DNA of 64,000 nucleotides, from IMG/VR virus record IMGVR_UViG_3300035696_000032; one strand, given 5' to 3'. Source of the DNA: an uncultured virus (IMG/VR IMGVR_UViG_3300035696_000032) (Duplodnaviria; Heunggongvirae; Uroviricota; Caudoviricetes). Under the pieces are notes generated by a model, which was given only the letters and a program-made list of their open reading frames with translations, made no database searches and was not told the DNA's origin. Shown here in pieces: positions 25,585 through 52,687 of this stretch (its first letter is position 1; the number at the start of each line of letters is the position of its first letter). A program made the translations under genes and the position numbers.

Positions 25585-25668
25585 TGGTGGGCGCCGGATT
25601 CGAACCGACGAAGGACCTACGCCCAGGGGCTCTTGGGGCCCCCGCAGTTGCCGCTGTGCCAGCCCACC
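25585..25668 (-). tRNA. trnL: tRNA-Leu(CAA), C33
   Basis: GGGGC-CCCAAGA-GCCCC; long variable arm. Confidence 0.88.
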
Positions 25669-25677
25669 GATGAGGAG

Positions 25678-25753
25678 CGCGCCCGGCAGGATTTGAACCC
25701 GCATCGTTCCACGTTCGAAGCGTGGCGCCATGTCCAGGTTAGGCGACGGGCGC
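25678..25753 (-). tRNA. trnR: tRNA-Arg(TCG)
   Basis: CCACG-CTTCGAA-CGTGG. Confidence 0.9.
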
Positions 25754-25754
25754 A

Positions 25755-25832
25755 TGGCGGGCTCGGCGGGATTTGAACCCGCGACCTTCAGGTTCGCAAC
25801 CTGACGCGATGTCCAGGCTACGCTACGAGCCC
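25755..25832 (-). tRNA. trnR: tRNA-Arg(GCG), encoded CCA
   Basis: TCAGG-TTGCGAA-CCTGA. Confidence 0.92.
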
Positions 25833-25835
25833 AAG

Positions 25836-25923
25836 TGGTGCTGAGAGGATTTGAACCTCTACGCGGGCTGACCCCACGCCTGCTTCTAAGGCAGGTGCGA
25901 TTACCTGATTCCGCCACAGCACC
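25836..25923 (-). tRNA. trnL: tRNA-Leu(TAG)
   Basis: CCTGC-CTTAGAA-GCAGG; long variable arm. Confidence 0.9.
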
Positions 25924-26033
25924 GAACGCCCGAGGCGCCCGGTTCTTACCGTAGCCGACGCAGGAGGAGCGGGCCCAAACTACTTCGCCGACGGTCCTCG
26001 CGCGTCATCGCGGTGCCCATACACGCTTTACTA

Positions 26034-26303
26034 TTAAAATCCGCCGCTCATCAGTCCGAGCTTCGCGGCGCAGCCACACGCCACTCCGATGTGGCGCTCG
26101 ATGTAGAAGACCCAGCCGCCGTACTCGACCGAATAGGTCTCCGGCTTGAGATGGAAGACCGGTCCAGTAATCGTCATTCCGCAGTTCGCGCAGATGATGA
26201 CGCGCGGTCCGTCTGTGAGAATGACCTCGCCCAGAGCGCCCTTTTCGAAGGGCACTGTCCCCTTCGACCGGGGAATCGTTGGGTCCCAGGAGTCTTCGCC
26301 CAT
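26034..26303 (-). CDS. Small CxxC hypothetical protein within the tRNA cluster
   Basis: CANCG...ACGC. Confidence 0.55.
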   Translation of the reverse strand: MGEDSWDPTIPRSKGTVPFEKGALGEVILTDGPRVIICANCGMTITGPVFHLKPETYSVEYGGWVFYIERHIGVACGCAAKLGLMSGGF

Positions 26304-26314
26304 CCGTCGCCGCA

Positions 26315-26407
26315 TGGGCCTCCCAGGATTTGAACCCGGACCTCATCGTCTCTTGCTGTCTCCGACAGTCCCAAGCGACGGGTGCTACCAAGTTACACCA
26401 AAGGCCC
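26315..26407 (-). tRNA. trnP: tRNA-Pro(TGG) with a 20-nt BHB intron at 37/38
   Basis: CTTG/CAAG central helix with GGA and AGA bulges; intron hairpin CTGTC-GGA-GACAG. Confidence 0.92.
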
Positions 26408-26419
26408 GCGTGGTGCGGA

Positions 26420-26493
26420 TGGGGTCGGAGCGATTCGAACGCCCATTCGCGGTTCTGGAGACCGATGTCCTAGCCGAGTTAGACGACGACCCC
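26420..26493 (-). tRNA. trnW: tRNA-Trp(CCA), intronless
   Basis: TCGGT-CTCCAGA-ACCGC. Confidence 0.9.
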
Positions 26494-26508
26494 GAAGCGG
26501 ATGCTGAG

Positions 26509-26593
26509 CGGGCGCGGCAGGATTCGAACCTGCACCTTCCAGAGGAAGAGCGGTTTTCGGGACCGCCGCATTACCGGATTGTGCCACGCGCCC
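26509..26593 (-). tRNA. trnS: tRNA-Ser(CGA), C33
   Basis: GCGGT-CCCGAAA-ACCGC; long variable arm; G73. Confidence 0.88.
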
Positions 26594-26746
26594 TCGCGGC
26601 CTGAGTCGCTATCGCCATCCCGGCGATGAGCGGCCAGACCGCGACAGGGGTCGCGGTGGCTGAAGGCGCGTGAGCTTCATGGTATGTTTCCCATGCAGGG
26701 ACTAGTATTAAATCCCAGCGGCGCTCATCCACTTCAGAGGTGAAAT

Positions 26747-26819
26747 GGGCCCGTGGCGTCAACGGTAGCGCACCAGGCCCTTAACCTGCGAGGTCGGGGT
26801 TCGAATCCCCGCGGGCCCA
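26747..26819 (+). tRNA. trnK: tRNA-Lys(CTT), C33
   Basis: CCAGG-CCCTTAA-CCTGC. Confidence 0.88.
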
Positions 26820-26847
26820 TCGGAGGCTCGAAGGCTCGCATGACAAT

Positions 26848-26918
26848 CCGGCCGTGGCGGATGGGGACGCGCCCGGCTGTAGACCGGAGCCATGCAGGTT
26901 CGAATCCTGCCGGCCGGA
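26848..26918 (+). tRNA. trnY: tRNA-Tyr(GTA), archaeal/eukaryal type
   Basis: C1-G72, short variable loop, CT-GTA-GA. Confidence 0.88.
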
Positions 26919-26965
26919 CTACAGTCGGCTATCGTGAGCGGCCGAGCGGACCCGGAGATAGGTCC

Positions 26966-27039
26966 GCTCCTCTGGCGTAACCGGTAAGCGCACCTCGTTC
27001 TCGGCGAGGGGTGTGTGGGTTCGAATCCCACGGGGAGCA
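26966..27039 (+). tRNA. trnE: tRNA-Glu(CTC)
   Basis: CCTCG-TTCTCGG-CGAGG. Confidence 0.88.
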
Positions 27040-27045
27040 TCTCAT

Positions 27046-27119
27046 GGTTCCGTGGTCCAACCCGGTTAGGATGCGCGGTTGTCAGCCGCGTGGTCCGGGT
27101 TCAAATCCCGGCGGAACCG
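27046..27119 (+). tRNA. trnD: tRNA-Asp(GTC)
   Basis: CGCGG-TTGTCAG-CCGCG; G73. Confidence 0.9.
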
Positions 27120-27120
27120 C

Positions 27121-27873
27121 TCAGTGCGCGAAGCTCAGCATGTGCTTCCGCAGGTACCGCCGCACCGCGCGGACGAACGTGTCGTCGAACTGACCGCGCT
27201 TGTTGGGGTCCTGGAGGATGTCGCCGTAGAAGTCCGTCCGGTAGCCGGTGTCCTCCATCGCCTGCATGATGAGCGAGTATGGGAACATATCCCGGTCGAT
27301 GGCCTCCTTCAGGTCGCCGGTCCACCGCGTCTCGTCCGTGCCAGGGTCCCAGGAGACGTCGATGAGCTTTCGCCGCAGCAGCTTCAGGTAGTGCTCGATG
27401 GACTCGGAGATGGCAGTGTCCTCGGGCTTTTCACCGCCAGGGCGCGCGTTGAGGACCTTACCGGCGTAGTCGAGCGCGAGCCCCTCGTCGAACGGGAACC
27501 TCTGCCCATCCGTCGCGGTGTAGAGCCAGGGGCCGCCGACCCCCCGACCGGTCGTGCTGATGCTGCCGCCGATGTGGGCGAGGCGGAGCCCCAGCTCGAT
27601 GCGGTCGCGGGTCGTCATCGTGTGCCAGCCCCCGGTCCGCAGTACGAGTTTGTCGGGATAGTAGTGGACCACGTCCGTCTGGTGAAGGATGAGGCTGACG
27701 CTGCCATCCCCTTCCTGGACGAGGTAGGTGTTCCGGTCGACCTTCTTCCGACCCTTGCGACCGTGCAGTAGGAGTGTCTCCACCTGCTGCGGAAGGGGAT
27801 TGGACTTCGGGAGGACCCACGCCAGGTACGCCGAGCCGTCGCGGCGGCGCACGCGGACGAGGTTCTGCCACAC
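27121..27873 (-). CDS. Leader-tagged protein 8
   Basis: MWQNLVRVRRRDGSAYLAWVLPKSNP, then a domain with LRTGGWHTMTTRDRI. Confidence 0.8.
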   Translation of the reverse strand: MWQNLVRVRRRDGSAYLAWVLPKSNPLPQQVETLLLHGRKGRKKVDRNTYLVQEGDGSVSLILHQTDVVHYYPDKLVLRTGGWHTMTTRDRIELGLRLAHIGGSISTTGRGVGGPWLYTATDGQRFPFDEGLALDYAGKVLNARPGGEKPEDTAISESIEHYLKLLRRKLIDVSWDPGTDETRWTGDLKEAIDRDMFPYSLIMQAMEDTGYRTDFYGDILQDPNKRGQFDDTFVRAVRRYLRKHMLSFAH

Positions 27874-27890
27874 GGCTTAGCCCGTGCCGG

Positions 27891-28793
27891 TCATCCGGGA
27901 GTTGCGATATAAGACGTGGCTCGGGGCGAACCGGTCCAAACAACGCGGTCAAAGTTCGTGGCGTATATCTGCATGAGGACGTCCGTGTCCAGCGCCAGCC
28001 CGTTCAGTCGAAGGCCATCGAACCGGTAGTGCTCGCGCTCCATCATCCGCCGGTAGGTCCCCGACACCCACGCGAGCCACGCCGCGGTCTTGTACTCCGC
28101 CATCGTCACGACCATGTCGGTGCCGAAGAGGATGCGGTCGGCGTACTTCGTGAGCACCTCGCGGAAGGCTCGCGGCCTCTTCGAGATGCGGCGGAGCCCA
28201 TCGCGCAGGAAGTCAATCTGCCCCAGGCTCACGTCGGTGTAGAGCCCTGGGTTGTTGTCCATGAACTCCTGGAAGCGGACGAGGTTGGAGGTCGAGAGGC
28301 AGAAGTGCGGACAGATGACCTTCATCCTGGGGAAGGCCGACAGGACCCGGCGGAACTCCTCGCCGTACTTCCCGCAGTTGACGTGAAAGAGGACCGGGAT
28401 TCCCTCCTTCTCGCAGAGGTCGTAGACGCCGAGCATCGACGGGCAATCGAGGGGCGTCTCGCCGTGAAAGTTCGAGTGGCCGCCGTACAGCTTGAGGCCA
28501 CTGGCGCCCTTCCTGAGGTAGCCGCGCAATCGCTCGACGTTGTCCGTGTCGGCCGGGTCCAGGGTCGGGAAGGCGAGGAACCGCAGCGGCCACCGCCTCG
28601 CAATCTCCAGGACTACCTCGTTGTAGTGGGTCTCGCGCTCGAACCCCGACCGGTCGAGCATGATGGTCGCCTCGGGGCTGCCGACGGCGACGCTCGCGTT
28701 GACCCCGACCGCCTCCATCGCCTCCAGGTACTTCGGCACGCAGGCGACCGATTGGAAGTGTTCGTGGACGTTGACGATGCCCTGCGGTCTCAT
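27891..28793 (-). CDS. Amidohydrolase-family (TIM-barrel) metallohydrolase
   Basis: VNVHEH, GLKLY, VLFH, ICPHF, ILFGTD. Confidence 0.88.
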   Translation of the reverse strand: MRPQGIVNVHEHFQSVACVPKYLEAMEAVGVNASVAVGSPEATIMLDRSGFERETHYNEVVLEIARRWPLRFLAFPTLDPADTDNVERLRGYLRKGASGLKLYGGHSNFHGETPLDCPSMLGVYDLCEKEGIPVLFHVNCGKYGEEFRRVLSAFPRMKVICPHFCLSTSNLVRFQEFMDNNPGLYTDVSLGQIDFLRDGLRRISKRPRAFREVLTKYADRILFGTDMVVTMAEYKTAAWLAWVSGTYRRMMEREHYRFDGLRLNGLALDTDVLMQIYATNFDRVVWTGSPRATSYIATPG

Positions 28794-28829
28794 CGGAACC
28801 GCTAAATCCCAGGTACTTCATGGATTTAC

Positions 28830-28926
28830 GATGTCCGCTCGTTCGGTCGAGTCGCCCGGCGTACGGCCGGTGGTACCCCGCTACCCCGGCGGGGAGATGG
28901 AAGGCCCCCTCGAACGGGTGGACATC
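28830..28926 (+). ncRNA. Putative structured RNA upstream of a tRNA cluster
   Basis: 16-bp closing stem with two G-U pairs enclosing two hairpins. Confidence 0.45.
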
Positions 28927-28967
28927 CCAATTCTCGGTGACCCCGGGCCCTTTACCAAACCGTAGAC

Positions 28968-29040
28968 GCTCCCTGAGTCTGTTGGTAGAGGATGCACCGC
29001 CTTCGACGGTGCGGGCCGAGTTCGATTCTCGGAGGGAGCA
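28968..29040 (+). tRNA. trnE: tRNA-Glu(TTC), C33
   Basis: CACCG-CCTTCGA-CGGTG. Confidence 0.85.
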
Positions 29041-29046
29041 CTTCAT

Positions 29047-29118
29047 GGGTCCGTGGCGTAGTGGTCGCGCAGCCGGCCTTTAACCGGTCAGATGCGGGTT
29101 CGATTCCTGCCGGGCCCA
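29047..29118 (+). tRNA. trnK: tRNA-Lys(TTT), C33
   Basis: GCCGG-CCTTTAA-CCGGT. Confidence 0.88.
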
Positions 29119-29121
29119 TAT

Positions 29122-29192
29122 GCGGGCCTGGTTCAGTAGGAGAACGCTCCGCTGAAGACGGAGGGAGGCCGGTGCAATTCCGGCGGCCCGCA
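29122..29192 (+). tRNA. trnF: tRNA-Phe(GAA), atypical T loop
   Basis: CTCCG-CTGAAGA-CGGAG; T loop TGCAATT. Confidence 0.85.
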
Positions 29193-29194
29193 CC

Positions 29195-29371
29195 TCATCC
29201 TGTCGGCGCGCCCCATCCTGGAGCGTCGATGAGAACGCCGCAACGGGAACACCACCGCAGCGTCCCGTTGACCTCGCCGTTCTCGTCCGCGATTGGGACC
29301 CCGAGGACGGGCGGCACATGGCCGAGGAGGGCGCAAGCCAGCGACCGCAGTAGCCCGGGTCTCTTGCTCAT
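29195..29371 (-). CDS. Small Zn-binding protein (58 aa; not in ORF track)
   Basis: LACALLGH...WCSRCG. Confidence 0.6.
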   Translation of the reverse strand: MSKRPGLLRSLACALLGHVPPVLGVPIADENGEVNGTLRWCSRCGVLIDAPGWGAPTG

Positions 29372-29380
29372 GCGTTTCCT

Positions 29381-32463: not shown

Positions 32464-32472
32464 CGACCGGCT

Positions 32473-32499: not shown

Positions 32500-32518
32500 A
32501 TACGGCGGCCCGAACCAG

Positions 32519-43305: not shown

Positions 43306-43320
43306 TATCCTCTTGGGATA

Positions 43321-43599
43321 CTACTCCACCATCGCGCGGAGCCACATCGCGCGACGCTTCCGCCACCCCTTCATCTTCGCGTACTCGGCGGCGGTGCAGC
43401 ACCACCGGCCGTGCGCGCCGTTGGACTTGCGGTAGTGACCGACCGGCGTGGTCGTCCACCGCAGCACCGCGAATCCCACAACCTGGCGGCGGTACGGGTT
43501 GAAGTCGGCCGGCATCGTACGGTAGAGGTACGGCCATAGCTGCACGCAGTACCGGTGCCGCGCGATGCGCTGCGCCTGGCGGAGGCGACGCCCGAACAT
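43321..43599 (-). CDS. Basic hypothetical protein
   Basis: ATG abutting an upstream TAG; Arg-rich. Confidence 0.5.
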   Translation of the reverse strand: MFGRRLRQAQRIARHRYCVQLWPYLYRTMPADFNPYRRQVVGFAVLRWTTTPVGHYRKSNGAHGRWCCTAAEYAKMKGWRKRRAMWLRAMVE

Positions 43600-43831
43600 C
43601 TACGGGCGCACCTCCCGACCCTTGTGGTTACGCCGGCAGGGGGCCTTGGGGTTCGGGTGGCCCTTCGGGTTCCGGTACTTCACGTACCGGTTCAGTCGGG
43701 AACAGAACGTCTTGTAGTGCCTTCGCGCGCCGCTCGTTTGTCCTCACCTACGGGTTATCGTTTCGATAACCGCGTAGGTTCGCGGGCTTGCGCCATGCAG
43801 CGACTCTATTCGACTCCTGGGATATAGAGCT

Positions 43832-43948
43832 TCAGGGGTAGAGGTAGGCGACCGCAATCAGCAGCACGCCCGCGATGCCGAGCGCGAAGAGGACGTAGCG
43901 GTCGCGCCGGCGCGTCGCCGGGTTGGGGACCATCCATCGGCTGGTCAT
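43832..43948 (-). CDS. Small NP-basic-TM peptide (38 aa)
   Basis: VPNPATRRRDR followed by a TM helix; ATGA coupling. Confidence 0.6.
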   Translation of the reverse strand: MTSRWMVPNPATRRRDRYVLFALGIAGVLLIAVAYLYP

Positions 43949-44223
43949 AGCATGACGAAGAGGAGGCCGATGAGGATTCCAATCACGTAGAACGTGAAGT
44001 CCTGGACGCCCTCGGGCCAGAACGGTTGGTCCTGTTCGTGGACCGGGTCCCAGAACGCTTCCTTGACGAGCACGACGATGAGCAGGGCCGCGATGGCGGC
44101 CACGAACCACGTCATCCCGTACGGGTGAAAGACACGGTAGTAGACCGCGACCAGGAAGCCGAACCCGATGGCGCCGTGGACCTCCTGCGCGAGGAGTTCG
44201 GGGTCCAGCGGGTTCCACTTCAT
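43945..44223 (-). CDS. Three-TM membrane protein
   Basis: Hydrophobic helices; KEAFWD. Confidence 0.7.
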   Translation of the reverse strand: MKWNPLDPELLAQEVHGAIGFGFLVAVYYRVFHPYGMTWFVAAIAALLIVVLVKEAFWDPVHEQDQPFWPEGVQDFTFYVIGILIGLLFVML

Positions 44224-44828
44224 CACTTCGACACCGTCAGGTCGATGGGGTAGGTCCCGGGCCAGTACGGAACGCCCAGCAGGACGTCGACCGTGATGGT
44301 CTCAGGCGTGGAGCAGTCGCGGTCGGAGAGCAGGACCCAGGGCGCGTTGACCGTGATGTCGTACTGCGGGCAGCACTTGGTCACGTTGACAGTCACGAGG
44401 ACCCAGGTCACCGTCCCGACCGGGAGCGAGTAGTTCTCGGGAATCGGCACGGTCGCGTTGACGCCGAGCGTGGCGTTCGTGTAGTTCACGAAGATGCCCG
44501 TCACGTTGACCACCGGGATGAGTTCGATGATGGTCGTGTTGACGTAGACCGTGCTGTTGCGGTAGACCGTGTTGGTCGTGTTGTCCCAGTGCGTCGTGTT
44601 GACCCAGACCGTGGTGTTGTGCCAAATCGGCGTCGTCGTGTTGACCGTCGTGTTGCGATAGACGGTCGAGTTGTGCTGGATGGTCTGATTGTCCCAAACC
44701 GTGTTCACGGTGTTCGTCTGGTGTGTGCCCGGGTTCGCGTAAGCATACGTTCCGATGCCCCCGAGAATCAGGGCGGCAATCACACCTGCGGCGAGAGCGT
44801 AATCCTTGAAGCGACTGAGAGACGCCAT
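44223..44828 (-). CDS. Signal-anchored putative glycoprotein
   Basis: N-terminal TM helix; 15 N-x-T/S sequons in 201 aa. Confidence 0.8.
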   Translation of the reverse strand: MASLSRFKDYALAAGVIAALILGGIGTYAYANPGTHQTNTVNTVWDNQTIQHNSTVYRNTTVNTTTPIWHNTTVWVNTTHWDNTTNTVYRNSTVYVNTTIIELIPVVNVTGIFVNYTNATLGVNATVPIPENYSLPVGTVTWVLVTVNVTKCCPQYDITVNAPWVLLSDRDCSTPETITVDVLLGVPYWPGTYPIDLTVSK

Positions 44829-45007
44829 CGGCCGGCGCTACCCACCTCTCGCTATAAGAGCGTGGGGGCGGGCACAGCTTCGGAGGAGCCGCCCCGCGGA
44901 GCCCATCCTCCTCTCGGTCCGCTCGACTCGGCTTGGAGCTACTAGTCGAACCTACCTTTGTTGCCTTGCGGACCGCGGCCGTGCCTACTCGACCATCGGC
45001 CCGGTGA

Positions 45008-45018
45008 TATTTATATAT
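45008..45018 (+). promoter_or_regulatory. Class E TATA box of the aRF1 gene
   Basis: TATTTATATAT; GGAGG before ATG 45055. Confidence 0.75.
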
Positions 45019-45054
45019 TGCGAGGGCCATCCTGAATCGGGAGGCACAGGAACG

Positions 45055-46182
45055 ATGAGTTCAGAGCCGAATCGGCAGGGCTCCGCCAAAGGGCCCGGGA
45101 TGCCTCCCGACGCCACGGACGCCCGCGGTCGCATCTGACTCCGCCGCCTCCTCCACGACCTTGAGTCGGAGGAGGGACGGGCGACCGAACTGGTCTCGCT
45201 TGTCCTGCCGCCCACGCGCAACATCCTCGACGCGCAGAAGCGTATCGCCGACGAACTGACCCAGGCGGCGAACATCAAGAGCCGCACCACGCGGATGGGC
45301 GTCCTTGACTCCCTCCAGAAGGTCCTCTCGACCCTGCGTCAGTACCGCTTTACTCCCTCGAACGGCCTCGCCGTCTACGCGAGCCCCGAATCGGTCCGTG
45401 TCGTGGAGCCGTCCGAGCCATTCCTTCGGGAGGTCTACTTCTGCGGTCCGAAGTTCATGCTCGACCCGCTGCGCGAGCAGTTGGAGGATAAGGCACAGTA
45501 CGCTCTCATCGTCCTCGACCGGAAGGAGGTCACGCTCGGGCTCCTCCGCGGCTCGCGGGTCATCGAGTTGGACTCGAAGGAGAGCCACGTCCCGCCGAAG
45601 CACGACGCGGGAGGCCAGTCCCAGCACCGGTGGGAACGGCAGACGGAGCAGGCGGCGCACGAGTTCTTCGTGAAAATCGGGGACATGGCGAACCGCTCGT
45701 TCCTCGACCAGGTCGACAGGCTGGACGGGGTGCTCATCGGCGGACCCGGGGACACAAAGCGTCAGTGGGCGGAAGGTGAGTTTATGGACTACCGCCTGGT
45801 CCGGAAGGTTCTCCGCCCGCTCGTGGACGTCAGCTACACCAACGAGTTCGGGCTCCAGGAGTTGGTCCGCTCCGCGGGAGACCTTCTCGCACATTTGTCA
45901 CTACAAAAGGACCAAATCGTAGTGACGAAGTTCGCAGATGCGGTGCGCCAGGGGCTGGCCGAGTACGGCCATGCTGAGGTGCTGCGGGCCCTCGAAGAGC
46001 GGCGCGCGAGCGCGCTCGTCCTCTACGAAGGCGTCGACTCCCGATTCCACGACGTGGTGGATGTCGCCGTGGGCCAGGGCGTGCCGGTGCACCTCCTCGC
46101 TGAGGAGGGCGCGTCGGGCGCGGAGTTCCTGAAGGGCTTCGGGGGCCTCGGCGTTATCCTTCGCTATCGGCCAACCGCTTGA
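45055..46182 (+). CDS. prf1: Peptide chain release factor aRF1/eRF1 with in-frame TGA at 45136-45138
   Basis: GRATELVSL, NIKS, YFCGPKF (YxCxxxF), GGQS, FGGLGVILRY; NIKS lies upstream of the ORF-track start at 45295. Confidence 0.9.
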
Positions 46183-46360
46183 GGACTTCCTCGACCTTGT
46201 CCAGGGCCTCCAGGATTTTCGCCCGGTCGATGTCCTCGGGGTGGTTACGGATGTAGCGCGCGATGTTCCGCAGCAGGTGGATGACCCGCAGCAGGATTTG
46301 CCGGTCGGACTCCGGCCCGGCTTCCAGCGTCACGGTCACGACGTTGGACGCGACGGCCAT
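46154..46360 (-). CDS. Small protein: SNVVTVT strand plus helical tail
   Basis: MAVASNVVTVTLE. Confidence 0.65.
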   Translation of the reverse strand: MAVASNVVTVTLEAGPESDRQILLRVIHLLRNIARYIRNHPEDIDRAKILEALDKVEEVLKRLADSEG

Positions 46361-46369
46361 CGGCCGAGC

Positions 46370-46657
46370 CTAGTTCGTGACCTGATAGGCAATCGAAATC
46401 GCCGTGGTCGTGGTGTTGGCCGCGACTGTTTCCGTGAAAGCCGCCGCTCCGCCAGTCGAAGTGGTGCTGTCAATCTGAGCGCCGTTCGCCAGTAGGTTGA
46501 GGGTCGTCCCATCGGGGAGGTTGGTCGTCACTAGGATGGTGACGGCACCGCCCGTGTACGGGAGCGTGAGCGGGGTCGCGGTGATGGCGATGGTGAACGG
46601 GGCCGCTGCTTCTGTCACCGTCACGACGTTGCTGAGGACTGAGCCAGGGGCTGCCAT
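46370..46657 (-). CDS. Small Ig-like module protein
   Basis: SNVVTVT...TTNLPDGTTLNL...VTN; resembles the C-terminus of 46692-47831. Confidence 0.75.
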   Translation of the reverse strand: MAAPGSVLSNVVTVTEAAAPFTIAITATPLTLPYTGGAVTILVTTNLPDGTTLNLLANGAQIDSTTSTGGAAAFTETVAANTTTTAISIAYQVTN

Positions 46658-46667
46658 ACGCCCCTCC

Positions 46668-46695
46668 CACCCGGTCTCCGGGATTTAAGCCCTAG
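46668..46695 (-). promoter_or_regulatory. Class L promoter motif
   Basis: AGGGCTTAAATC-N7-CCGGGTG. Confidence 0.7.
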
Positions 46696-47831
46696 TTCGT
46701 GACCACGACGGGGATGTCGACCGTACTTTGCGCCGTGCTGGCGGGAATGGTCACGGCGAACAGGGCAACTCCCTCGGACACGGTCGCGGTCCCGCTCTGG
46801 ACGCCGTTCACCAGGACGTTCAGGGTCGTCCCGTCGGGGAGGTTGGTGGTCGCTGTGACCACGACTTCGCCGCCCGTAGGTCCGACTGTGCGCGGCCTCA
46901 GCCGGATGCGGATGCTTGACGTCCCGCCGGTGGTGGGCGTCTCCTTGACGTAGGCCGTGTTCGAGACGACAGAGGCCGGGGGTGTGATGGGGGGCGTAGG
47001 CCCCGGCGTCGGTGTGGGGGTCGGCGTGGGTGTGGGCGCCGGCGGTGTGACGACCGGCGGGGCGGAGCCAATCGCCGCGAGGTCGGCCTGGAGTTGGGCC
47101 ATGTTGAACCCCTCGATGGACGTGCCCTGCGCGCTCAGCCAGTCGGGCGAGAGGATGGCGTACGCCTCGTCCGCGTAGGCGTAGAAGAAGGCCCAGGACA
47201 TCGCCTTCACCGTGCCCCATGTGATGACGTAGACGTTGTTCGCGTCGTAGCCGACGATGGGGACGCAGTGGCCGTTGTCCGGGTCGGGCGGGTTCGCAGC
47301 GAAGCCTCCGGCGGGGACCGCGGTCCAGTCCACGTCGAGGAGGTTCCCGTCCGGCGGATTGACCGCGTAGTCGGGGAGGGCGAGGCCGATGTAGCAGCCG
47401 CCGAAGATGGCGACGGCGTCCTGGACCTCGGTCTGATTGCTGACAGTGACGGAAGCGTACGCACCAATCTTGTCCGGCGTGGTCGTGGTCGGGATGCCCG
47501 TGTTCTGCCAGTACTGGAGGACCGTCAGCATGTCCGCGCCTTGGTCCACGCCACCGTCCACGACGTTGTACGCCGCGAGGATGTCGGCATCGGGGATGAT
47601 TTCCGGCGTCCCGTCGGCCTGCTGTGTCCACTGTTCGACAAGGTGGCCCGCAGCGGCGCAGGTGCAGTCGCCGTAGGTGTCGTTCCCCATCATGGGCCAT
47701 GTCGAGACCGCCGTGTAGTACGTGACCGTCGCGGGCGGAGAAGGAAGGGCCGCGGTGAGGTACTTTCCGAACTTCAGGGTCCGCTTGTCGAGGCGGGGTG
47801 GCTTCTTGCCCAGGCGGAACTTCGGTGGCAT
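46692..47831 (-). CDS. Papain-like cysteine peptidase with PT linker and Ig-like module
   Basis: NDTYGDCTCAA (Cys), GHCVPIVGYD (His), ITWG. Confidence 0.8.
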   Translation of the reverse strand: MPPKFRLGKKPPRLDKRTLKFGKYLTAALPSPPATVTYYTAVSTWPMMGNDTYGDCTCAAAGHLVEQWTQQADGTPEIIPDADILAAYNVVDGGVDQGADMLTVLQYWQNTGIPTTTTPDKIGAYASVTVSNQTEVQDAVAIFGGCYIGLALPDYAVNPPDGNLLDVDWTAVPAGGFAANPPDPDNGHCVPIVGYDANNVYVITWGTVKAMSWAFFYAYADEAYAILSPDWLSAQGTSIEGFNMAQLQADLAAIGSAPPVVTPPAPTPTPTPTPTPGPTPPITPPASVVSNTAYVKETPTTGGTSSIRIRLRPRTVGPTGGEVVVTATTNLPDGTTLNVLVNGVQSGTATVSEGVALFAVTIPASTAQSTVDIPVVVTN

Positions 47832-47838
47832 GACCCAG

Positions 47839-47866
47839 CCACCCGGTTCGGCGGATTTAAGCCCTG
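47839..47866 (-). promoter_or_regulatory. Class L promoter motif
   Basis: AGGGCTTAAATC-N7-CCGGGTGG. Confidence 0.7.
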
Positions 47867-47869
47867 GTC

Positions 47870-48685
47870 TCAGACCCAACTGAACAGCCACTTGATGAAG
47901 CGGACGATGGCAGCCCACCAGGACTCGGCCGGACTCTCGGTGACCGCTGAGAGGTCGGACTGAAGTTGGGCGAGGTCGACGCCGGAGGGCGCTTCGCCCT
48001 GAGCGAGCCAATCCGTGTCGATGAGCGCGTACGCTTCGTCACAGTACGTCGTAACGAACGCCCAGGTCGCCTGATACCGTGCTCCCCAGGAGATGACCGT
48101 GACCCCGTTCGCGTCGTAGGCGACGACCGGGACCGCATGTCCGCCCCAGGAGCCGGGAGCCCCGTTGCCCGTGGCCCCACCGGGTGGAACCGTCCATGTC
48201 GTCTGGCCCTGGGCCGACAACGGCATCTGGAGCCCGAGGTAGGTGTTGCCGAAGATGTCCGTGGCCGTCTCGACCATCTGTTGGTCGACCTCGACCTCCG
48301 CGTAGGCGTTGAGCGTGTCGCCGCCGACGCCGTTCTGACGCCAGTAGTTCAGGACGTCGAGGACGACCGCTCCGTCGTCGTTCGCGCCCGTCGTGGGGTT
48401 GTAGCCGCTGACCGCCTCGTAGAACGACAGGATGGTCGAGTCGGGCAGGATGACCGGTGCCGCCTCGGTGTCGGACGTCCACTCCTGGATGCAGTGCCCG
48501 ACGGCCGCGCAGGTGCAGTCGCCAAGCGTGTCGTTGAGCATCGCGCCGAGCGGTCCCATCTTCTCGGACCAGTCGACGGAAGCCGGGGGCGCGGGCAAAG
48601 CCTCGGGCTTCAGGTACTTCTTCAGTTGGAGTGTTCGCGGGTCTACGCGCTTCGGTTTCTTGCCGAGCTTGAACTTGCCGACCAC
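47870..48685 (-). CDS. Papain-like cysteine peptidase, paralogue with amphipathic C-terminal helix
   Basis: NDTLGDCTCAA, GGHAVPVVAYD, ISWG; WWAAIVRFIKWLF; AGGGCTTAAATC near 48706-48718. Confidence 0.8.
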   Translation of the reverse strand: MVGKFKLGKKPKRVDPRTLQLKKYLKPEALPAPPASVDWSEKMGPLGAMLNDTLGDCTCAAVGHCIQEWTSDTEAAPVILPDSTILSFYEAVSGYNPTTGANDDGAVVLDVLNYWRQNGVGGDTLNAYAEVEVDQQMVETATDIFGNTYLGLQMPLSAQGQTTWTVPPGGATGNGAPGSWGGHAVPVVAYDANGVTVISWGARYQATWAFVTTYCDEAYALIDTDWLAQGEAPSGVDLAQLQSDLSAVTESPAESWWAAIVRFIKWLFSWV

Positions 48686-48799
48686 GCCCGGTGAGCGGAC
48701 CCTATGGATTTAAGCCCTCGTGCGGTCATGGGTGGACGATGGCGTTCCGCCGTTCCGACCCCGGCCAACAGCGCGGCCTTCAGCATAGCTGCTGAACAT

Positions 48800-48876
48800 A
48801 GCCCCGTTGGCTAATCGGAAAGGCTACCTCGTTCTGGCCGAGGATTGTGGGGGTTCGAATCCTCCCGGGGCTACCA
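48800..48876 (+). tRNA. trnQ: tRNA-Gln(CTG), encoded CCA
   Basis: A1-U72; CCTCG-TTCTGGC-CGAGG. Confidence 0.9.
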
Positions 48877-48878
48877 GC

Positions 48879-48950
48879 AGCCCCGGGGAGAGACGGCAAT
48901 CTCGGCACTCCTTGAAAGTGCAGAACTCGGTTCGACTCCGGGCGGGGCTA
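48879..48950 (+). tRNA. trnQ: tRNA-Gln(TTG), C33
   Basis: A1-U72; GCACT-CCTTGAA-AGTGC. Confidence 0.85.
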
Positions 48951-48968
48951 TGGAGAACCCATTCGCGT

Positions 48969-49040
48969 GGCCTCCGTAGTGTAGCGGGTGCACAGCGGTC
49001 TGTGAAGCCGCGGGGCCGAGTTCAACCCTCGGCGGAGGCC
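48969..49040 (+). tRNA. trnH: tRNA-His(GTG)
   Basis: Encoded G-1, C73, CT-GTG-AA. Confidence 0.88.
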
Positions 49041-49042
49041 CC

Positions 49043-49462
49043 TCAACCGAAGAGCGCGGACAACCCGCTGACCATTTCGTTCTCGGCGCGGAGGCGCTTG
49101 ACGATGCGGTCGATGAGCGCATCGCGCTCCATGTTGTCCTCCTCCTGACCGACCTGGATGAGGTCCTCCCATTCGTAGCCGAGTTCCCGGGCCAGCGACT
49201 GGAGCGCGTCCACCCATCCGCGACGGTAGGCTGCCAACCGCTGGTAGGTCTTCGGGTCGGCGCCGGGCCCAGGTCCGAGCGGGTCTTCGTAGACCGCGGG
49301 AACCTCCTGCGGGACGCGGATGTTCGCCTCCGTCACCATGTAAATCTTCTCGGGGAGTACGACTTCGAGCGGCAGGTCGACCGCGGCCTTGGGCGGCTTC
49401 ATCTCCTCCGGATTCGGGCGGACGGGCGGTGGGTGCTTCAGTCGAACCTTGGGGAAGCTCAT
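49043..49462 (-). CDS. Hypothetical protein with basic-NP N-terminus
   Basis: MSFPKVRLKHPPPVRPNP; LARELGYEWED. Confidence 0.7.
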   Translation of the reverse strand: MSFPKVRLKHPPPVRPNPEEMKPPKAAVDLPLEVVLPEKIYMVTEANIRVPQEVPAVYEDPLGPGPGADPKTYQRLAAYRRGWVDALQSLARELGYEWEDLIQVGQEEDNMERDALIDRIVKRLRAENEMVSGLSALFG

Positions 49463-49599
49463 ATCAGGCCCCTCCACCCACGAGCGAGGAATTAAGAACT
49501 AGTGCGAGCGTGGGTGGGGTAATGGCGCACGCACGGCAGGAGGCCGCAGCAGCAGTAGCCGAACTCGGTCCCACGAATCGGGGACCGGGCGTCGGGCGT

Positions 49600-49671
49600 G
49601 GGCCTGTGCGGTAATCGGAAACCTCCGGAGCCCGCAACTCCGAATTGCGCGTTCAACTCGCGCCAGGTCCA
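49600..49671 (+). tRNA. trnA: tRNA-Ala(CGC), C33
   Basis: G3:U70; CGGAG-CCCGCAA-CTCCG. Confidence 0.82.
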
Positions 49672-49682
49672 TTCACTCCGAC

Positions 49683-49754
49683 AGCCCGGTGGTGTAACGG
49701 CGAGCATGGGAACCCTACAAGTTCTCGGCGGGGGTTCGACTCCCTCTCGGGCTA
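49683..49754 (+). tRNA. trnV: tRNA-Val(TAC), C33
   Basis: GGAAC-CCTACAA-GTTCT; unusual A1-U72. Confidence 0.82.
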
Positions 49755-49755
49755 T

Positions 49756-49829
49756 GCGGACGTGGTGTCAATCCGGCAGCACGACGGCCTTCCAAGCCGA
49801 CGGTCTGGGTTCAAATCCCGGCGTCCGCA
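49756..49829 (+). tRNA. trnG: tRNA-Gly(TCC)
   Basis: ACGGC-CTTCCAA-GCCGA. Confidence 0.9.
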
Positions 49830-49839
49830 CCTCACATTT

Positions 49840-49911
49840 GCCGCGGAAGCTGAACGGCTAAGCGCCCGGCTGTTAACCGGAGGTTCGCAGGTTCGACTCC
49901 TGCCCGCGGCG
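49840..49911 (+). tRNA. trnN: tRNA-Asn(GTT)
   Basis: CCCGG-CTGTTAA-CCGGA; G73. Confidence 0.88.
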
Positions 49912-50075
49912 TTTGAGCGGGGGAAGCGGACGGATTTCGTACTCGTCCGGAGGGAACGTGAGCATCTTCAGGAGCGCGACGACCTCCGCCGCCCGTCGGC
50001 GAGTGAATGGCCCCAGCGCGTACGACCCATCGAGTCCAGGGCGGCGGACGATGACCTCGAACTTCGGACGTTCAG

Positions 50076-50146
50076 TGCGCCCGGCGAGAGTTGAACTCGC
50101 TCTGCCACGTTGGCAACGTGGCGTCATGCCGGTAGACCACGGGCGC
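50076..50146 (-). tRNA. trnG: tRNA-Gly(GCC)
   Basis: CCACG-TTGCCAA-CGTGG. Confidence 0.9.
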
Positions 50147-50152
50147 GTCGAA

Positions 50153-50227
50153 CGCCCTCGGTGAGATTCGAACTCACGACGCACCGCTTAGAAGGCGGCT
50201 CCTTTGTCCAGGCTAAGGTACGAGGGC
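50153..50227 (-). tRNA. trnR: tRNA-Arg(TCT)
   Basis: GCCGC-CTTCTAA-GCGGT. Confidence 0.9.
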
Positions 50228-50282
50228 ATCGCCGGCGTGTCGACCGACTTTCCCTCGTCTCCTCGTGAGCGCCATCGGCGGA

Positions 50283-50353
50283 TAGCGGAACCAGGAATCG
50301 AACCTGGGCTCCCGGCTTATGAGGCCGGCCCACGACCTTCGTGGTATCCCGCT
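50283..50353 (-). tRNA. trnM: tRNA-Met(CAT), initiator-like acceptor stem
   Basis: AGCGGGA/TTCCGCT (A1-U72); CCGGC-CTCATAA-GCCGG. Confidence 0.85.
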
Positions 50354-50405
50354 GCTCACGGGATGCACCCGCAGATATTTGAACCTGCGCGATTACTAGG
50401 AACTC

Positions 50406-50478
50406 GGGCTCCTGGCGCAATCGGAAACGCACCCGCTTGGCATGTGGGAGATTCCGGGTTCGAGTCCCGGGGGGTCCA
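50406..50478 (+). tRNA. trnA: tRNA-Ala(GGC)
   Basis: G3:U70; TT-GGC-AT. Confidence 0.9.
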
Positions 50479-51315
50479 CTAGGGCATCAAACGCTTCCTG
50501 GCGAGGAGGCGTTGCGCTTCCTTGGGAGACCGGGTGGGCAGACCCAGACGTTGAAACGCGCAGGTCAGGCCGGTCGCCGACAATCCATGCCGCGCTGCGA
50601 CTCGCTTGAGACTGTCGCCCGATTCAACATAGTCCCGGTGGGCAGACTCCACAGCCGCCCTGTCCGTAACGTTGAGCCCGCCTCCCGCGCGGTTATTTTC
50701 GCTGGGCTTGGCCCTAGACGACCGTACGAGATTCCACGTCTGCTGTGCGCTCAGCCCGAGAGTGCGGCCGGCTGCTGCCTTCGTCCTTCCCGCTTCAACC
50801 ATCCTCCAGAACTGTTCCCTCACCGCGGGTCGAACGCGCCGACGAGTTTCGTACCGGTTCCGTACGACCCCGGCCGCGTGAGCCAGTTTGTTGACGGCGC
50901 TGGGGCTAATGCCCAGTCGTCGTCCGGTGGCCTCTACGGACAGTCCATGTCTGTAGAACGATACGGCGGATGAAGCAGTCCATTCATCGAGTTCGAGGCT
51001 CTCTCCGTGCCCACGGATTCGAAGGCCGGCACGTCTGAAGCTCTTCAGGATTCCGGCCAGCGACATCCCGTACTTGCGGCCAACTGCTTCGGCGGAGAGA
51101 CGGTCGTTGATGTACTCCGCGTGGGCCTGACGAAGCTCCCGGTTGGAGAGTTTCCTTTTCGGCTTATGGCTTGGCAGTCCTGCCCGATGGACCCAGAGGA
51201 GAACGGTAGACTTGGGAAGCTGTAATGTGATTCCAACCTGCTTCGCCGTGTTGCCCTTCGAATACAGGTCCAACGCCTTTTGATGGATGGCGGGGGGGTA
51301 GCTATCCCAGGTCAT
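50479..51315 (-). CDS. Multi-HTH DNA-binding protein
   Basis: About five HTH-like units, e.g. SLKRVAARHGLSATGL. Confidence 0.75.
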   Translation of the reverse strand: MTWDSYPPAIHQKALDLYSKGNTAKQVGITLQLPKSTVLLWVHRAGLPSHKPKRKLSNRELRQAHAEYINDRLSAEAVGRKYGMSLAGILKSFRRAGLRIRGHGESLELDEWTASSAVSFYRHGLSVEATGRRLGISPSAVNKLAHAAGVVRNRYETRRRVRPAVREQFWRMVEAGRTKAAAGRTLGLSAQQTWNLVRSSRAKPSENNRAGGGLNVTDRAAVESAHRDYVESGDSLKRVAARHGLSATGLTCAFQRLGLPTRSPKEAQRLLARKRLMP

Positions 51316-51323
51316 CGCAACGC

Positions 51324-52406
51324 CTACCGCTGGAACGGCTTCCCCGGTTTGACCTCGTTCTTGACGATGGGGACGTGGTCCCACCGCTCCTCGCTCTGGA
51401 CGTGGCCCTCGCGGACGTACTTAGCTATGGCGTTGACGCGCCATGTTTCTCCGCTGTTGGAGTTACGACTTTCGTAACCCTCGTGCATCCCGAACACGTA
51501 CGGGTACGCGAGGCGGACGACGATTCCCTCGTGGCCGCGCTTGATGACGTCGTTGGCGAGGCGGAAGAGCCGGACGCGGAGCGCATCCTCGTTCGGGTAC
51601 TCCTTCCCGTACTCCAGGACCGGGACCGTCGGGAAGCCGATGAGCTTCGCGGCCTGCACGACGTGCGGCCAGGAGCCGAACATCTGCTCCTTCTGGTCGT
51701 AGACGCCAAAGACCATGAACAGCGAGTCGAGCTGGAGCTTCCCGGTGTAGTGGATGGAGTGCCGCGCGTAGAGGTTCTCTCCGAAGATTTGGACGCCCTC
51801 GGGGATTTGCTTAGCGAACCCGGCGTGTGCCGCCTTCAGCCAGTCGAACGAGGCGTGGTCCGCGGAGTGTCCGTTCCGCGCCGCGACCAGGTCGCGCGTC
51901 AGGAGCGTGTTGCCGCCGTCCATCTTGATGGTGATGCAGAGCGGCTGGTGGACGAACGGCTTCAGGTCGGGGAGGTTGATGTCGTTCTCCTCCACGCCCG
52001 GGCTCATGGGGAGGTACGGCGTGGAGGGGTACTTCACGCGCTCCCGGTTCGGCTGCTTGAGCACGACGCCCCACTTGTCGTACCGTTGGGCCGGGTCCCA
52101 TCCGGACGGCAGGACGACGTCCTCGATTTCGGCCCAGTAGCGGAGGACGTCGGGTTGAAGCGTGCAGGTTTCCGCCCCCCATAGGTGGTGGAACGGACAG
52201 AGGGTGGCGCCGTTCTCGACGAAGTAACCGGCCTCCTCGCCCGCGGCGGTCCAGAGCCGTCGCTCGATGATGTGGTGAGCGACGACCTCGACCTCGTGGC
52301 CTGCCTCGACCTCCTGGGCGTACCCGCAGCCCGGGACGACGCAGGTCTTGTCATCGCGTTCGAAGACCGCCTCGCGGAACTCCTCGCGCGTCAGGAGTGT
52401 CGGCAT
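51324..52406 (-). CDS. HNH-like domain fused to an ATP-dependent RNA ligase
   Basis: FERDDKTCVVPGC, AHHII, NGATLC; KYPSTPYLP, KMDGGN (KxDG), FGEN, EGIVVR, AKYV. Confidence 0.85.
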   Translation of the reverse strand: MPTLLTREEFREAVFERDDKTCVVPGCGYAQEVEAGHEVEVVAHHIIERRLWTAAGEEAGYFVENGATLCPFHHLWGAETCTLQPDVLRYWAEIEDVVLPSGWDPAQRYDKWGVVLKQPNRERVKYPSTPYLPMSPGVEENDINLPDLKPFVHQPLCITIKMDGGNTLLTRDLVAARNGHSADHASFDWLKAAHAGFAKQIPEGVQIFGENLYARHSIHYTGKLQLDSLFMVFGVYDQKEQMFGSWPHVVQAAKLIGFPTVPVLEYGKEYPNEDALRVRLFRLANDVIKRGHEGIVVRLAYPYVFGMHEGYESRNSNSGETWRVNAIAKYVREGHVQSEERWDHVPIVKNEVKPGKPFQR

Positions 52407-52524
52407 CTTTCCTCAATCGAGCAGCCGAACGGGGAGGGCTCGACCCCTCCGCGACCCAAGAGGGTGTCGAGCCCCTCAGAGGCTGCTTTCATAGCCGCCC
52501 GGCAGAGACGATTAGGTCTCTCCG

Positions 52525-52535
52525 ATATATAAATA
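52525..52535 (-). promoter_or_regulatory. Class E TATA box of the ligase operon
   Basis: TATTTATATAT. Confidence 0.7.
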
Positions 52536-52538
52536 TAG

Positions 52539-52609
52539 AGCCACCGGCAGGAGTTGAACCCGCATCCCCAACTTACCATGCTGGGATTCGTCCGCCGAAC
52601 TGCGGTGGC
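52539..52609 (-). tRNA. trnT: tRNA-Thr(GGT)
   Basis: CCAGC-ATGGTAA-GTTGG (A32); U73. Confidence 0.85.
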
Positions 52610-52616
52610 ATGTGAG

Positions 52617-52687
52617 AGCCCCAGGAGGGAGTTGAACCCTCTTGGACGATTTTGCGGACCGTCGCGTATCCGACCTGCCCCTGGGGC
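52617..52687 (-). tRNA. trnC: tRNA-Cys(GCA), C33
   Basis: ACGGT-CCGCAAA-ATCGT; U73. Confidence 0.82.

Follow-up and report, generated by a model that had tools for sequence, protein, structure and literature searches.

Introduction

Uridine at position 33 (U33) is among the most conserved bases in biology and shapes the U-turn of the tRNA anticodon loop. Herein, we describe a 64,000-nucleotide (nt) stretch of DNA from an uncultured virus of the Caudoviricetes (IMG/VR record IMGVR_UViG_3300035696_000032; this whole stretch is termed "the window"), in which nine of the 32 virus-encoded tRNA genes have cytidine at this position (C33), each with the U-turn base replaced in a loop of normal size. 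The virus comes from peat and is, by its gene content, one of archaea.

Among described systems, the closest is that of the cluster C1 mycobacteriophages (van den Berg et al. 2023, eLife, PMC10264068), with which the window shares virus tRNA arrays, non-canonical anticodon loops, and a proposed escape from nucleases. According to that study and a second one (PMC12409363), the anticodon loop is a frequent cleavage site of defence nucleases, from which loop-altered phage tRNAs have been proposed or shown to escape. The argument of van den Berg et al. is built on known host tRNAs and known VapC sites, whereas the window virus is read without either; moreover, the host is here archaeal, and one and the same position is changed in 23 to 46% of the tRNAs across three related viruses. 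The main text of van den Berg et al. contains no mention of position 33, U33, or C33; by our count, Bxz1, from the same phage cluster, encodes two Val tRNAs with C33.

A cellular counterpart is found in the Sulfolobales, the tRNA-Cys(GCA) of which is described as having C33 (Wolff et al. 2020, RNA, PMC7668247); archaeal translation is thus able to use an elongator tRNA of this type. The virus tRNA-Cys(GCA) likewise has C33, and keeps it in a related virus. The Sulfolobales case concerns one cellular tRNA in one order, whereas here nine isoacceptors of a virus are affected, with turnover among relatives; the same paper also calls U33 conserved in the three archaea studied. The initiator tRNA-Met of multicellular eukaryotes is another natural C33 tRNA according to PMC8887486, but it is an initiator and not an elongator; the window virus has U33 in its tRNA-Met(CAU).

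With respect to tRNA content, Halogranum tailed virus 1 (HGTV-1) is the archaeal virus reported to have the most tRNA genes (34 to 36; PMC13532342), a record that the 32 genes of the window approach. The two viruses are alike in their near-complete tRNA sets and in an RNA ligase (35% identity), but HGTV-1 lacks C33 altogether (0/35) and is a hypersaline isolate with a tRNA region of 49% G+C content (GC), versus 66% for the peat virus. Lastly, phage T4 is described in two sources (PMC10264068; PMC12409363) as using an RNA ligase against an anticodon nuclease. In T4 tRNA repair, Pnkp and Rnl1 counter PrrC. An RNA ligase gene also lies among the tRNA genes of the window; it differs from the T4 arrangement in that the ligase is of the PF09414 type and that the window ORFs gave no match to a polynucleotide kinase.

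A literature search of titles and abstracts, with subscription journals outside its coverage, returned no description of C33 in virus-encoded tRNAs. What is new here is the archaeal setting, a C33 rate well above that of the other sets counted, and the turnover of C33 carriers over three related viruses.

Nine virus tRNA genes carry C33

The 32 tRNA genes called by ARAGORN in the window represent all 20 amino acids and are closely packed in three places, 25.5-29.2 kb, 48.8-52.8 kb, and 59.3-59.5 kb, where they form tight arrays (Table 1). Anticodon loops taken from the ARAGORN folds have C33 in 9/32 tRNAs, each with C32 before it, and each C33 coordinate was verified against the window sequence. 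The nine C32-C33 loops claimed in a preliminary description of this DNA are thereby upheld, as are its G32 in tRNA-Ser(GCU) and A32 in tRNA-Thr(GGU), both present in the ARAGORN folds. Since the anticodon loops of the C33 tRNAs are 7 nt long and their closing stems 5 base pairs (bp), no register shift can bring U33 back. Each of the nine genes is 1 to 19 nt from an adjoining tRNA gene, inside arrays that also hold U33 tRNAs, making co-transcription likely; tRNA-Leu(CAA), for instance, shares a single array with Ser(GCU), 2 nt away, and Arg(UCG), 8 nt away.

Table 1. Principal features of the window, with tRNA scores against Rfam model RF00005
Feature	Position	Strand	Details
TFB/TFIIB-like gene	22289..23332	+	NF001658 3e-14 (profile positions 12-308 of 312, below curated cut-off); PF00382, PF08271
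First tRNA block	25494..29194		15 tRNA genes in four arrays, 5 with C33; holds Pro(UGG) with intron and class-I Tyr (26848-26919, +)
tRNA-Leu(CAA)	25584..25668	-	Loop CCCAAGA, C33 at 25636; 41.3 bits, lax filters only
tRNA-Ser(CGA)	26508..26593	-	Loop CCCGAAA, C33 at 26560; 52.8 bits
tRNA-Lys(CUU)	26746..26821	+	Loop CCCTTAA, C33 at 26779; 54.3 bits
Amidohydrolase gene	27891..28793	-	PF04909 6.9e-12; weak PDB relative 2dvt, gamma-resorcylate decarboxylase
tRNA-Glu(UUC)	28968..29041	+	Loop CCTTCGA, C33 at 29001; no match at E<=10; 4 nt upstream of Lys(UUU)
tRNA-Lys(UUU)	29046..29119	+	Loop CCTTTAA, C33 at 29078; 58.1 bits
aRF1 gene	45055..46182	+	In-frame TGA at 45136-45138
Second tRNA block	48800..52835		15 tRNA genes, 4 with C33, around RNA ligase gene; syntenic with L008
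tRNA-Gln(UUG)	48879..48950	+	Loop CCTTGAA, C33 at 48911; no match at E<=10
tRNA-Ala(CGC)	49599..49672	+	Loop CCCGCAA, C33 at 49632; 42.8 bits, lax filters only
tRNA-Val(UAC)	49683..49754	+	Loop CCTACAA, C33 at 49715; 49.7 bits
RNA ligase gene	51324..52406	-	Between tRNA arrays; PF09414 8.5e-23; phrog_24030 'RNA ligase' 1e-73
tRNA-Cys(GCA)	52616..52687	-	Loop CCGCAAA, C33 at 52656; 32.8 bits, lax filters only
tRNA-Ile(GAU) and tRNA-Ile(UAU)	59307..59466	-	U33 in both

The stretch is present in six peat DNA runs, with no RNA runs among those listed. Contigs from four other peat DNA runs match positions 25400-29300 letter for letter, save for a single listed G>T change at 28851, which is not within a tRNA; C33 is therefore not an assembly error in the first tRNA block, which was the part compared, and these contigs, being identical, offer no strain variation at this block.

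Regarding the decoding repertoire, the virus has no tRNAs for Cys, Val, and Lys other than C33 tRNAs. The codons read by the C33 set include AAG, GCG, and UCG, which make up 89%, 44%, and 37% of the Lys, Ala, and Ser codons, respectively, and codon usage indicates that both common and rare codons are served. Four of the nine have U34 and five have C34 or G34, and ANN codons are decoded by two, both of them for Lys.

C33 in two related viruses

A metagenome scan with the RNA ligase returned the source contig of the window (L007, 100% identity) and a single relative, L008, a 10.2-kb contig of 63.6% GC, the ligase of which is 86% identical. Its 13 tRNAs are syntenic with the second tRNA block of the window, and six of them have C33. 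The four window C33 tRNAs that are present in L008, i.e., Cys, Val, Ala, and Gln(UUG), all keep C33, and Asn(GUU) and Thr(GGU) have C33 in L008 and U33 in the window. Over the four shared C33 tRNAs, 58/292 aligned positions differ between the two viruses, compared to 0/28 loop positions, and the anticodon stems have been remade through paired (compensatory) changes. C33 is thus retained in Gln(UUG) of L008 with all five anticodon-stem pairs replaced (RF00005, 43.4 bits), in Ala(CGC) with two stem pairs swapped, and in Cys(GCA) with 68/72 positions identical. With loops unchanged and stems remade in pairs, the virus tRNAs appear to be under selection. The Rfam cut-off is passed by 5/6 C33 tRNAs of L008, the top-scoring tRNA of the contig being one of them (Asn, 63.1 bits); Cys is not listed at E<=0.01. 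Position-33 states of the window and L008 agree (Fisher P = 0.02), the two viruses being close.

A second relative, L068, emerged when IMG/VR was scanned using aligned virus-type aRF1 (archaeal release factor) proteins; it is part of a 68.6-kb IMG/VR virus record of 55.6% GC and is more distant than L008 (aRF1 45% identical). Directly downstream of its aRF1 gene lie 22 tRNAs, all above the Rfam cut-off, including a class-I tRNA-Tyr with C1-G72. Five of the 22 have C33, namely Arg(GCG), Val(UAC), Tyr, Gly(GCC), and Trp, such that Val(UAC) is the sole C33 tRNA common to all three viruses. In L068, Lys(CUU), Leu(CAA), and Ser(CGA) have U33, and U34 tRNAs for Lys, Glu, and Gln are lacking. The survey of related genomes that the preliminary description had suggested thus yielded C33 in 6/13 (L008) and 5/22 (L068) tRNAs. 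The comparison covers these two relatives, one from a metagenome and one from IMG/VR, and the first tRNA block is without a close relative among them; exact tRNA-Cys and tRNA-Thr words had no match in IMG/VR. At 20/67 tRNAs over the three viruses, C33 would be a heritable trait of this virus lineage; on these three sequences, the lineage keeps the trait while the identity of the carrier tRNAs changes.

As to which tRNAs carry C33, the preliminary description had pointed to Lys, Glu, and Gln tRNAs as the known targets of anticodon nucleases. In the window, this holds insofar as all three U34 tRNAs for these amino acids have C33 (hypergeometric P = 0.017); it does not extend to L068, in which the C33 set differs and Lys(CUU) has U33. 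C32 precedes C33 in 9/9 window tRNAs versus 14/23 U33 tRNAs (P = 0.035), and in 18/20 versus 32/47 over the clade (P = 0.07). C33 occurs in 8/20 non-G34 versus 1/12 G34 tRNAs of the window (P = 0.10), and A37 is equally frequent, by eye count, in C33 tRNAs of the clade (16/20) and U33 tRNAs of the window (18/23). Taken together, the associations of C33 with C32, non-G34, A37, and codon usage give no clear result.

C33 frequency in other viruses and in a high-GC cell

Position 33 was counted in all sets with the same ARAGORN procedure. The counts for five cultured jumbo phages are for the regions with listed Rfam matches, with 36 further matches unlisted; among the matches listed, C33 was present in 7/153 tRNAs (CcrBL9, 1/28, tRNA regions of 61% GC; SCTP-2, 2/24; RsoM2USA, 3/46; XacN1, 1/28; Atu_ph07, 0/27). 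The mycobacteriophage Bxz1 has 2/32 (Val(CAC) and Val(GAC)), and a 427-kb IMG/VR phage of 39% GC has 4/37, the highest of the other sets counted; the seven bacteriophages pooled thus give 13/222, the jumbo part being among the matches listed. In HGTV-1, there are three A33 calls alongside the absence of C33. An Actinomycetota metagenome-assembled genome (MAG) of 70% GC has C33 in 0/31 distinct tRNAs from the best 30 of 68 matches.

Against the jumbo phages (among the matches listed), the 9/32 of the window lie well beyond chance expectation (binomial P = 9e-6; Fisher P = 2e-4). The clade formed by the window, L008, and L068 has 20/67 against 13/257 for all other viruses, the jumbo part again among the matches listed (Fisher P = 1e-7). 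Given the low counts in CcrBL9 (1/28, among the matches listed) and in the 70% GC MAG (0/31, best 30 of 68), and the 4/37 of the phage of 39% GC, GC pressure alone is not the explanation.

Several further departures from U33 are present in these sets. In the 427-kb phage (IMG/VR record G002; L004, L063-L067), Lys(UUU) and Asn(GUU) are each encoded twice, once with U33 and once with C33, and there is also a tRNA with a UCA anticodon that ARAGORN labels SeC. The 17-nt anticodon arm of the window Lys(UUU), with its C33, recurs in this unrelated phage; two of the three IMG/VR matches to this arm (L005 and L006) were set aside, as there is no tRNA at either place. In the HGTV-1 record (42000-54000; L002), the A33 calls of ARAGORN concern Cys(GCA), an Ile(GAU) of 71 nt, and an Ala(AGC) of 88 nt that is itself doubtful. 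A tRNA-Cys without U33 is thus seen in Sulfolobales cells as well as in two archaeal viruses that are unrelated to each other.

Integrity of the C33 tRNAs

Conserved positions were tallied in 31 tRNAs, with the intron-bearing Pro excluded. G53, T54, C56, A58, and C61 are kept in 31/31, T55 in 30/31, U8 in 26/31, and U33 in 22/31, and position 33 is C or U in every one of the 31. Position 33 is the outlier among conserved positions; i.e., the change is specific to that site. All nine C33 tRNAs have G53, T54, T55, C56, A58, and C61 in a T loop of 7 nt.

Scores against Rfam RF00005 (gathering score 29 bits) are more mixed. A whole-window run matched 27/32 tRNA genes, the five missed all having C33; laxer filters on the two blocks added Leu(CAA), Ala(CGC), and Cys(GCA) above 29 bits, such that the cut-off is reached by 7/9 C33 genes (32.8 to 58.1 bits) versus 23/23 U33 genes (37.8 to 68.2 bits). 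Glu(UUC) and Gln(UUG) are the weakest members, with no match at E<=10 even under the laxer filters. U8 and A14 are both present in 5/9 C33 tRNAs (position 14 counted from the 5' end with no structural alignment); G8 and G14 replace them in Glu(UUC), Gln(UUG), and Cys(GCA), and Lys(CUU) has C at the counted position 14. The deficit in RF00005 score is partly the penalty for C33 itself and partly due to other departures, such as this G8 and G14. The "otherwise well-paired cloverleaves" of the preliminary description are borne out only partially: seven genes reach 29 bits, whereas Glu(UUC) and Gln(UUG) have no match and, with Cys(GCA), share the G8/G14 combination. The U33 tRNA-Thr(GGU) has C8 with G14, the G8/G14 pattern of Cys is retained in L008, and Gln(UUG) of L008 has U8.

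These weaker members bear on whether the C33 genes are decaying or non-decoding, i.e., pseudogenes or decoys. Two genes without a Rfam match at E<=10, the 32.8 bits of Cys, and the G8 and G14 common to all three would suit such decay. On the other hand, 7/9 C33 genes are above the Rfam cut-off, the T-arm invariants are whole in 9/9, stems changed in compensation in L008 with the loops constant, and C33 tRNAs are the only ones that the virus has for Cys, Val, and Lys and serve common codons. We thus consider this explanation most unlikely. The contention of the preliminary description that nine parallel changes speak against random decay is borne out by the whole T-arm invariants, the tight arrays, and the retention of C33 through compensatory stem changes in L008.

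An archaeal virus from peat

The window has a GC of 65.7%, and several independent marks identify the element as a virus of archaea. A class-I tRNA-Tyr with C1-G72, a tRNA intron at the canonical site, a TFB, an aRF1, and a TATA box are all archaeal marks, and each is found here. The tRNA-Tyr belongs to class I, measures 72 nt, and has C1-G72 and A73; tRNA-Pro(UGG) (26315-26407, -) has a 20-nt intron after position 37, the canonical site, with a four-base anticodon being called when the ARAGORN intron option is off. In addition to the TFB/TFIIB-like gene, the virus encodes an aRF1 with the GGQ motif that aligns to the Aeropyrum pernix aRF1 structure and matches TIGR03676 at 246 bits (315 bits when read through an in-frame TGA; cut-off 234.7). 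The archaeal TATA consensus TTTAWATA has six copies upstream of genes, with 0.04 expected. Window proteins match phage families; the window DNA has no match in the phage collection at near or distant settings, and neither the TFB, nor a 404-amino-acid protein, nor the aRF1 has a tblastn match there.

Among named cellular relatives, both for the aRF1 (32 to 42% identity) and for a neighbouring protein (55 to 58%), Thermoplasmata MAGs predominate, which provides a lead to the host only. An aRF1 search of genome contigs gave one weak match, in the Actinomycetota MAG mentioned above, which serves only as a high-GC cellular control.

Such leads matter for the proposition that the host's own tRNAs carry C33 and that the virus mirrors a peculiarity of its host lineage. 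The tRNA-Cys(GCA) of Sulfolobales has C33, as does that of the virus, but U33 is called conserved in the three archaea studied in the same source (PMC7668247). The named cellular relatives of two virus proteins are mostly Thermoplasmata MAGs, a group that may have such a peculiarity; a fixed host pattern predicts the same C33 isoacceptors in related viruses, however, and those of the window and L068 differ. We judge this explanation quite improbable.

Candidate enzymes encoded in the window

No nuclease, toxin, or deaminase family was matched among 97 window open reading frames (ORFs) searched against Pfam (81 + 16) or among 88 searched with PADLOC, the only PADLOC matches being one methyltransferase and one NADAR protein. 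This bears on two suggestions of the preliminary description.

The first is self-immunity, whereby a virus tRNase would destroy U33 host tRNAs and spare the virus's own C33 tRNAs. It has no direct support, fitting only in the sense that it would suit a virus whose tRNAs cover all 20 amino acids. Neither ORF set gave a match to a nuclease or toxin family, and the 23/32 virus tRNAs that keep U33 would be destroyed as well. We find this suggestion highly improbable.

The second is editing of C33 to U33 after transcription by an undescribed deaminase, which would render C and U equivalent in the gene. Free U/C turnover would be permitted by editing, and the C32 that precedes C33 in 18/20 tRNAs of the clade is a possible recognition context. 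We know of no C33-to-U editing. C-to-U tRNA editing of the CDAT8 type calls for an enzyme of the cytidine-deaminase fold; no cytidine-deaminase family was matched among the 97 window ORFs in Pfam (the source contig runs ~34 kb beyond the window), and C33 is not confined to this clade, being present in unrelated bacteriophages and a cellular tRNA-Cys. The adjacent amidohydrolase, put forward earlier as a deaminase candidate, is a PF04909 protein for which the sole relative of solved structure, a weak one, is a decarboxylase; nothing was found to connect it with the tRNAs, and there is no homologue of it in L008 or L068. Neither the amidohydrolase nor the RNA ligase was found in record G003, a fragment ~47% complete and hence uninformative. 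Editing is thus, in our estimation, very improbable.

Sequence searches with the RNA ligase gave no relative in the PDB and no close one in IMG/VR. A polynucleotide kinase/phosphatase family was not found among window ORFs, which gave only a DSPc-type phosphatase domain at 20391-20765 (+), where a dual-specificity-phosphatase domain protein is encoded.

A possible role for C33

Published biochemistry provides a rationale for changing U33. In PMC11096365, a flipped-out U33 is described as triggering acetyl-CoA hydrolysis by human and yeast Elongator, with U33C abolishing it, and a U33C suppressor tRNA as lacking mcm5U in vivo. C33 is further described, in PMC8887486 and PMC9654439, as a t6A37 anti-determinant for E. 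coli TsaBCDE and yeast KEOPS, but not for human or nematode KEOPS.

We tentatively favour, with less than even confidence, a reading in which the C33 tRNAs are working virus tRNAs whose C33 hides the anticodon loop from U33-reading host enzymes. As such, they would be expressed, aminoacylated, competent in decoding, and resistant to these enzymes. Exchange of U33 for the other pyrimidine would keep the loop usable by the ribosome and remove the handle of host enzymes that act on the anticodon loop. C33 would block the Elp3 step leading to xm5U34 as well as t6A37 formation, and anticodon nucleases that cut at or beside U33 would be hindered likewise. This would afford the virus a private "stealth" tRNA pool, one that stays usable while host tRNAs are attacked or re-modified in infection. 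A release factor and an RNA ligase, both encoded next to the arrays, would take part in the same translation contest. The location of the ligase gene between tRNA arrays speaks for the overall reading.

Several points weigh against such a role. With C34 or G34 in 5/9 C33 tRNAs, Elp3 is irrelevant to five of them, and with only the two Lys tRNAs decoding ANN codons, t6A is irrelevant to seven; a need of archaeal Elp3 or KEOPS for U33 was not found in the literature covered. HGTV-1, the other tRNA-rich archaeal virus, is without C33. At ten other conserved positions, C33 tRNAs have 0.78 departures per tRNA versus 0.32 for U33 tRNAs, and two C33 tRNAs lack a Rfam match. A fixed set of nuclease targets predicts that C33 be shared; yet for the 19 anticodons common to the window and L068, one is C33 in both (1.05 expected), three are C33 in the window only, four in L068 only, and 11 have U33 in both (Fisher P = 1.0), an overlap at the level of chance. 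Position 33 has also switched in 2/13 orthologues between the window and L008. In the RNA ligase, 51/157 four-fold degenerate sites differ between these viruses (synonymous divergence dS, 0.48), against which the retention of C33 is not clearly better than neutral.

The same turnover fits about as well with near-neutral tolerance, i.e., that any pyrimidine at position 33 suffices and that under weak selection U and C drift, with some GC-biased mutation and no adaptive role. Tolerance would account for the chance-like reshuffling of C33 identities relative to L068, for switches in orthologues that are not clearly fewer than those at four-fold sites, for the restriction of position 33 to C and U, for the somewhat greater deviance of C33 tRNAs elsewhere, and for the low-level C33 (13/222, the jumbo part among the matches listed) in each kind of phage examined; a cellular archaeal tRNA-Cys is, moreover, described as functioning with C33 in PMC7668247. 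It leaves unexplained the approximately fivefold C33 level versus other phages (Fisher P = 1e-7), the lack of a C33 rise at high GC in CcrBL9 (among the matches listed) and in the 70% GC MAG (best 30 of 68), the unrelaxed T-arm invariants, and the paired U33/C33 copies of two tRNAs retained by the low-GC phage. Nor does it explain why C33 stays under half in all three viruses at 56 to 66% GC, where U is thus still favoured. Near-neutral tolerance is a close rival to concealment of the anticodon loop from host enzymes, and we regard it as possible, if doubtful.

A more far-reaching form of the concealment reading, in which the C33 set escapes xm5U34 formation, t6A37 formation, and a U33-dependent nuclease, and would make up with a UGA-gated release factor and the RNA ligase a translation-takeover module, the first to be described for archaea, we consider unlikely, including its bolder variant in which a novel editing enzyme converts C33 to U33.

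In either case, this virus lineage provides ready matched C33/U33 tRNAs that bear on the need of archaeal ribosomes for U33, on the dependence of host enzymes on this base, and on its exploitation by viruses. With concealment from host enzymes, the tRNA-centred conflict of viruses and hosts, to date a subject of bacterial studies, would reach into archaea; if C33 is merely tolerated, the textbook view of an invariant U33 would be corrected.

Other features of the locus

The aRF1 gene of the window has a TATA-like box at 45010 and an ATG at 45055, followed by 27 codons and a TGA that is itself followed by C; aRF1 homology begins directly after this TGA, with no ATG, GTG, or TTG ahead of 45295. 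Translation through the TGA as X accounts for the rise of the TIGR03676 score from 246 to 315 bits, with the NIKS region included. The aRF1 of L008 (10206-9068, -; 71% identical) has a TGA at the equivalent place with the same residues after it, its upstream mini-frame being just seven codons; that of L068 is without interruption. In bacterial RF2, an in-frame UGA follows a comparable logic. By analogy, readthrough at the in-frame TGA of the virus aRF1 may serve as a switch responsive to termination activity.

Between the aRF1 gene and the second tRNA block, two overlapping ORF calls (46692-48011, -; 47870-48685, -) are paralogues of a family also encoded beside the tRNA arrays of L008 and L068, the sole uncharacterized family with this placement in the three viruses. 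The family has 4490 members at E<=1e-5 with no Pfam domain on record, and proteins 55 to 58% identical are found in Thermoplasmata, Bryobacteraceae, and other MAGs. We had considered this family as a candidate tRNA enzyme and rejected it, since its conserved Cys/His motifs resemble those of a papain-type cysteine protease, a resemblance for which there is no family match.

In L008, weak C/D-box small RNA matches (sR1, 27.4 bits; sR44, 25.6 bits; gathering score 45) lie between two tRNA genes at 5823-5876 (+), with no C/D-box match in the corresponding part of the window. At 20024-20370 (+), the window has a gene-free region with tRNA-like pieces, comprising a 5' acceptor strand and D arm at 20024 and two T arms (~20133-20160 and 20343-20369), each followed by a matching 3' acceptor strand. 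There is no Rfam match in this region, and ARAGORN calls it at relaxed thresholds only and in mutually inconsistent ways; it could be a long-intron tRNA or disrupted tRNA genes. An ORF at 50479-51384 (-), between tRNA arrays and the RNA ligase gene, has transposase-type helix-turn-helix matches (HTH_23, 1.3e-9) and an unusually low third-position GC of 0.66, and may be a mobile insertion. A NADAR-domain protein (5.5e-33) is encoded at 60174-60761 (+), its start probably being an ATG ~25 nt downstream of a TATA-like box at 60280.

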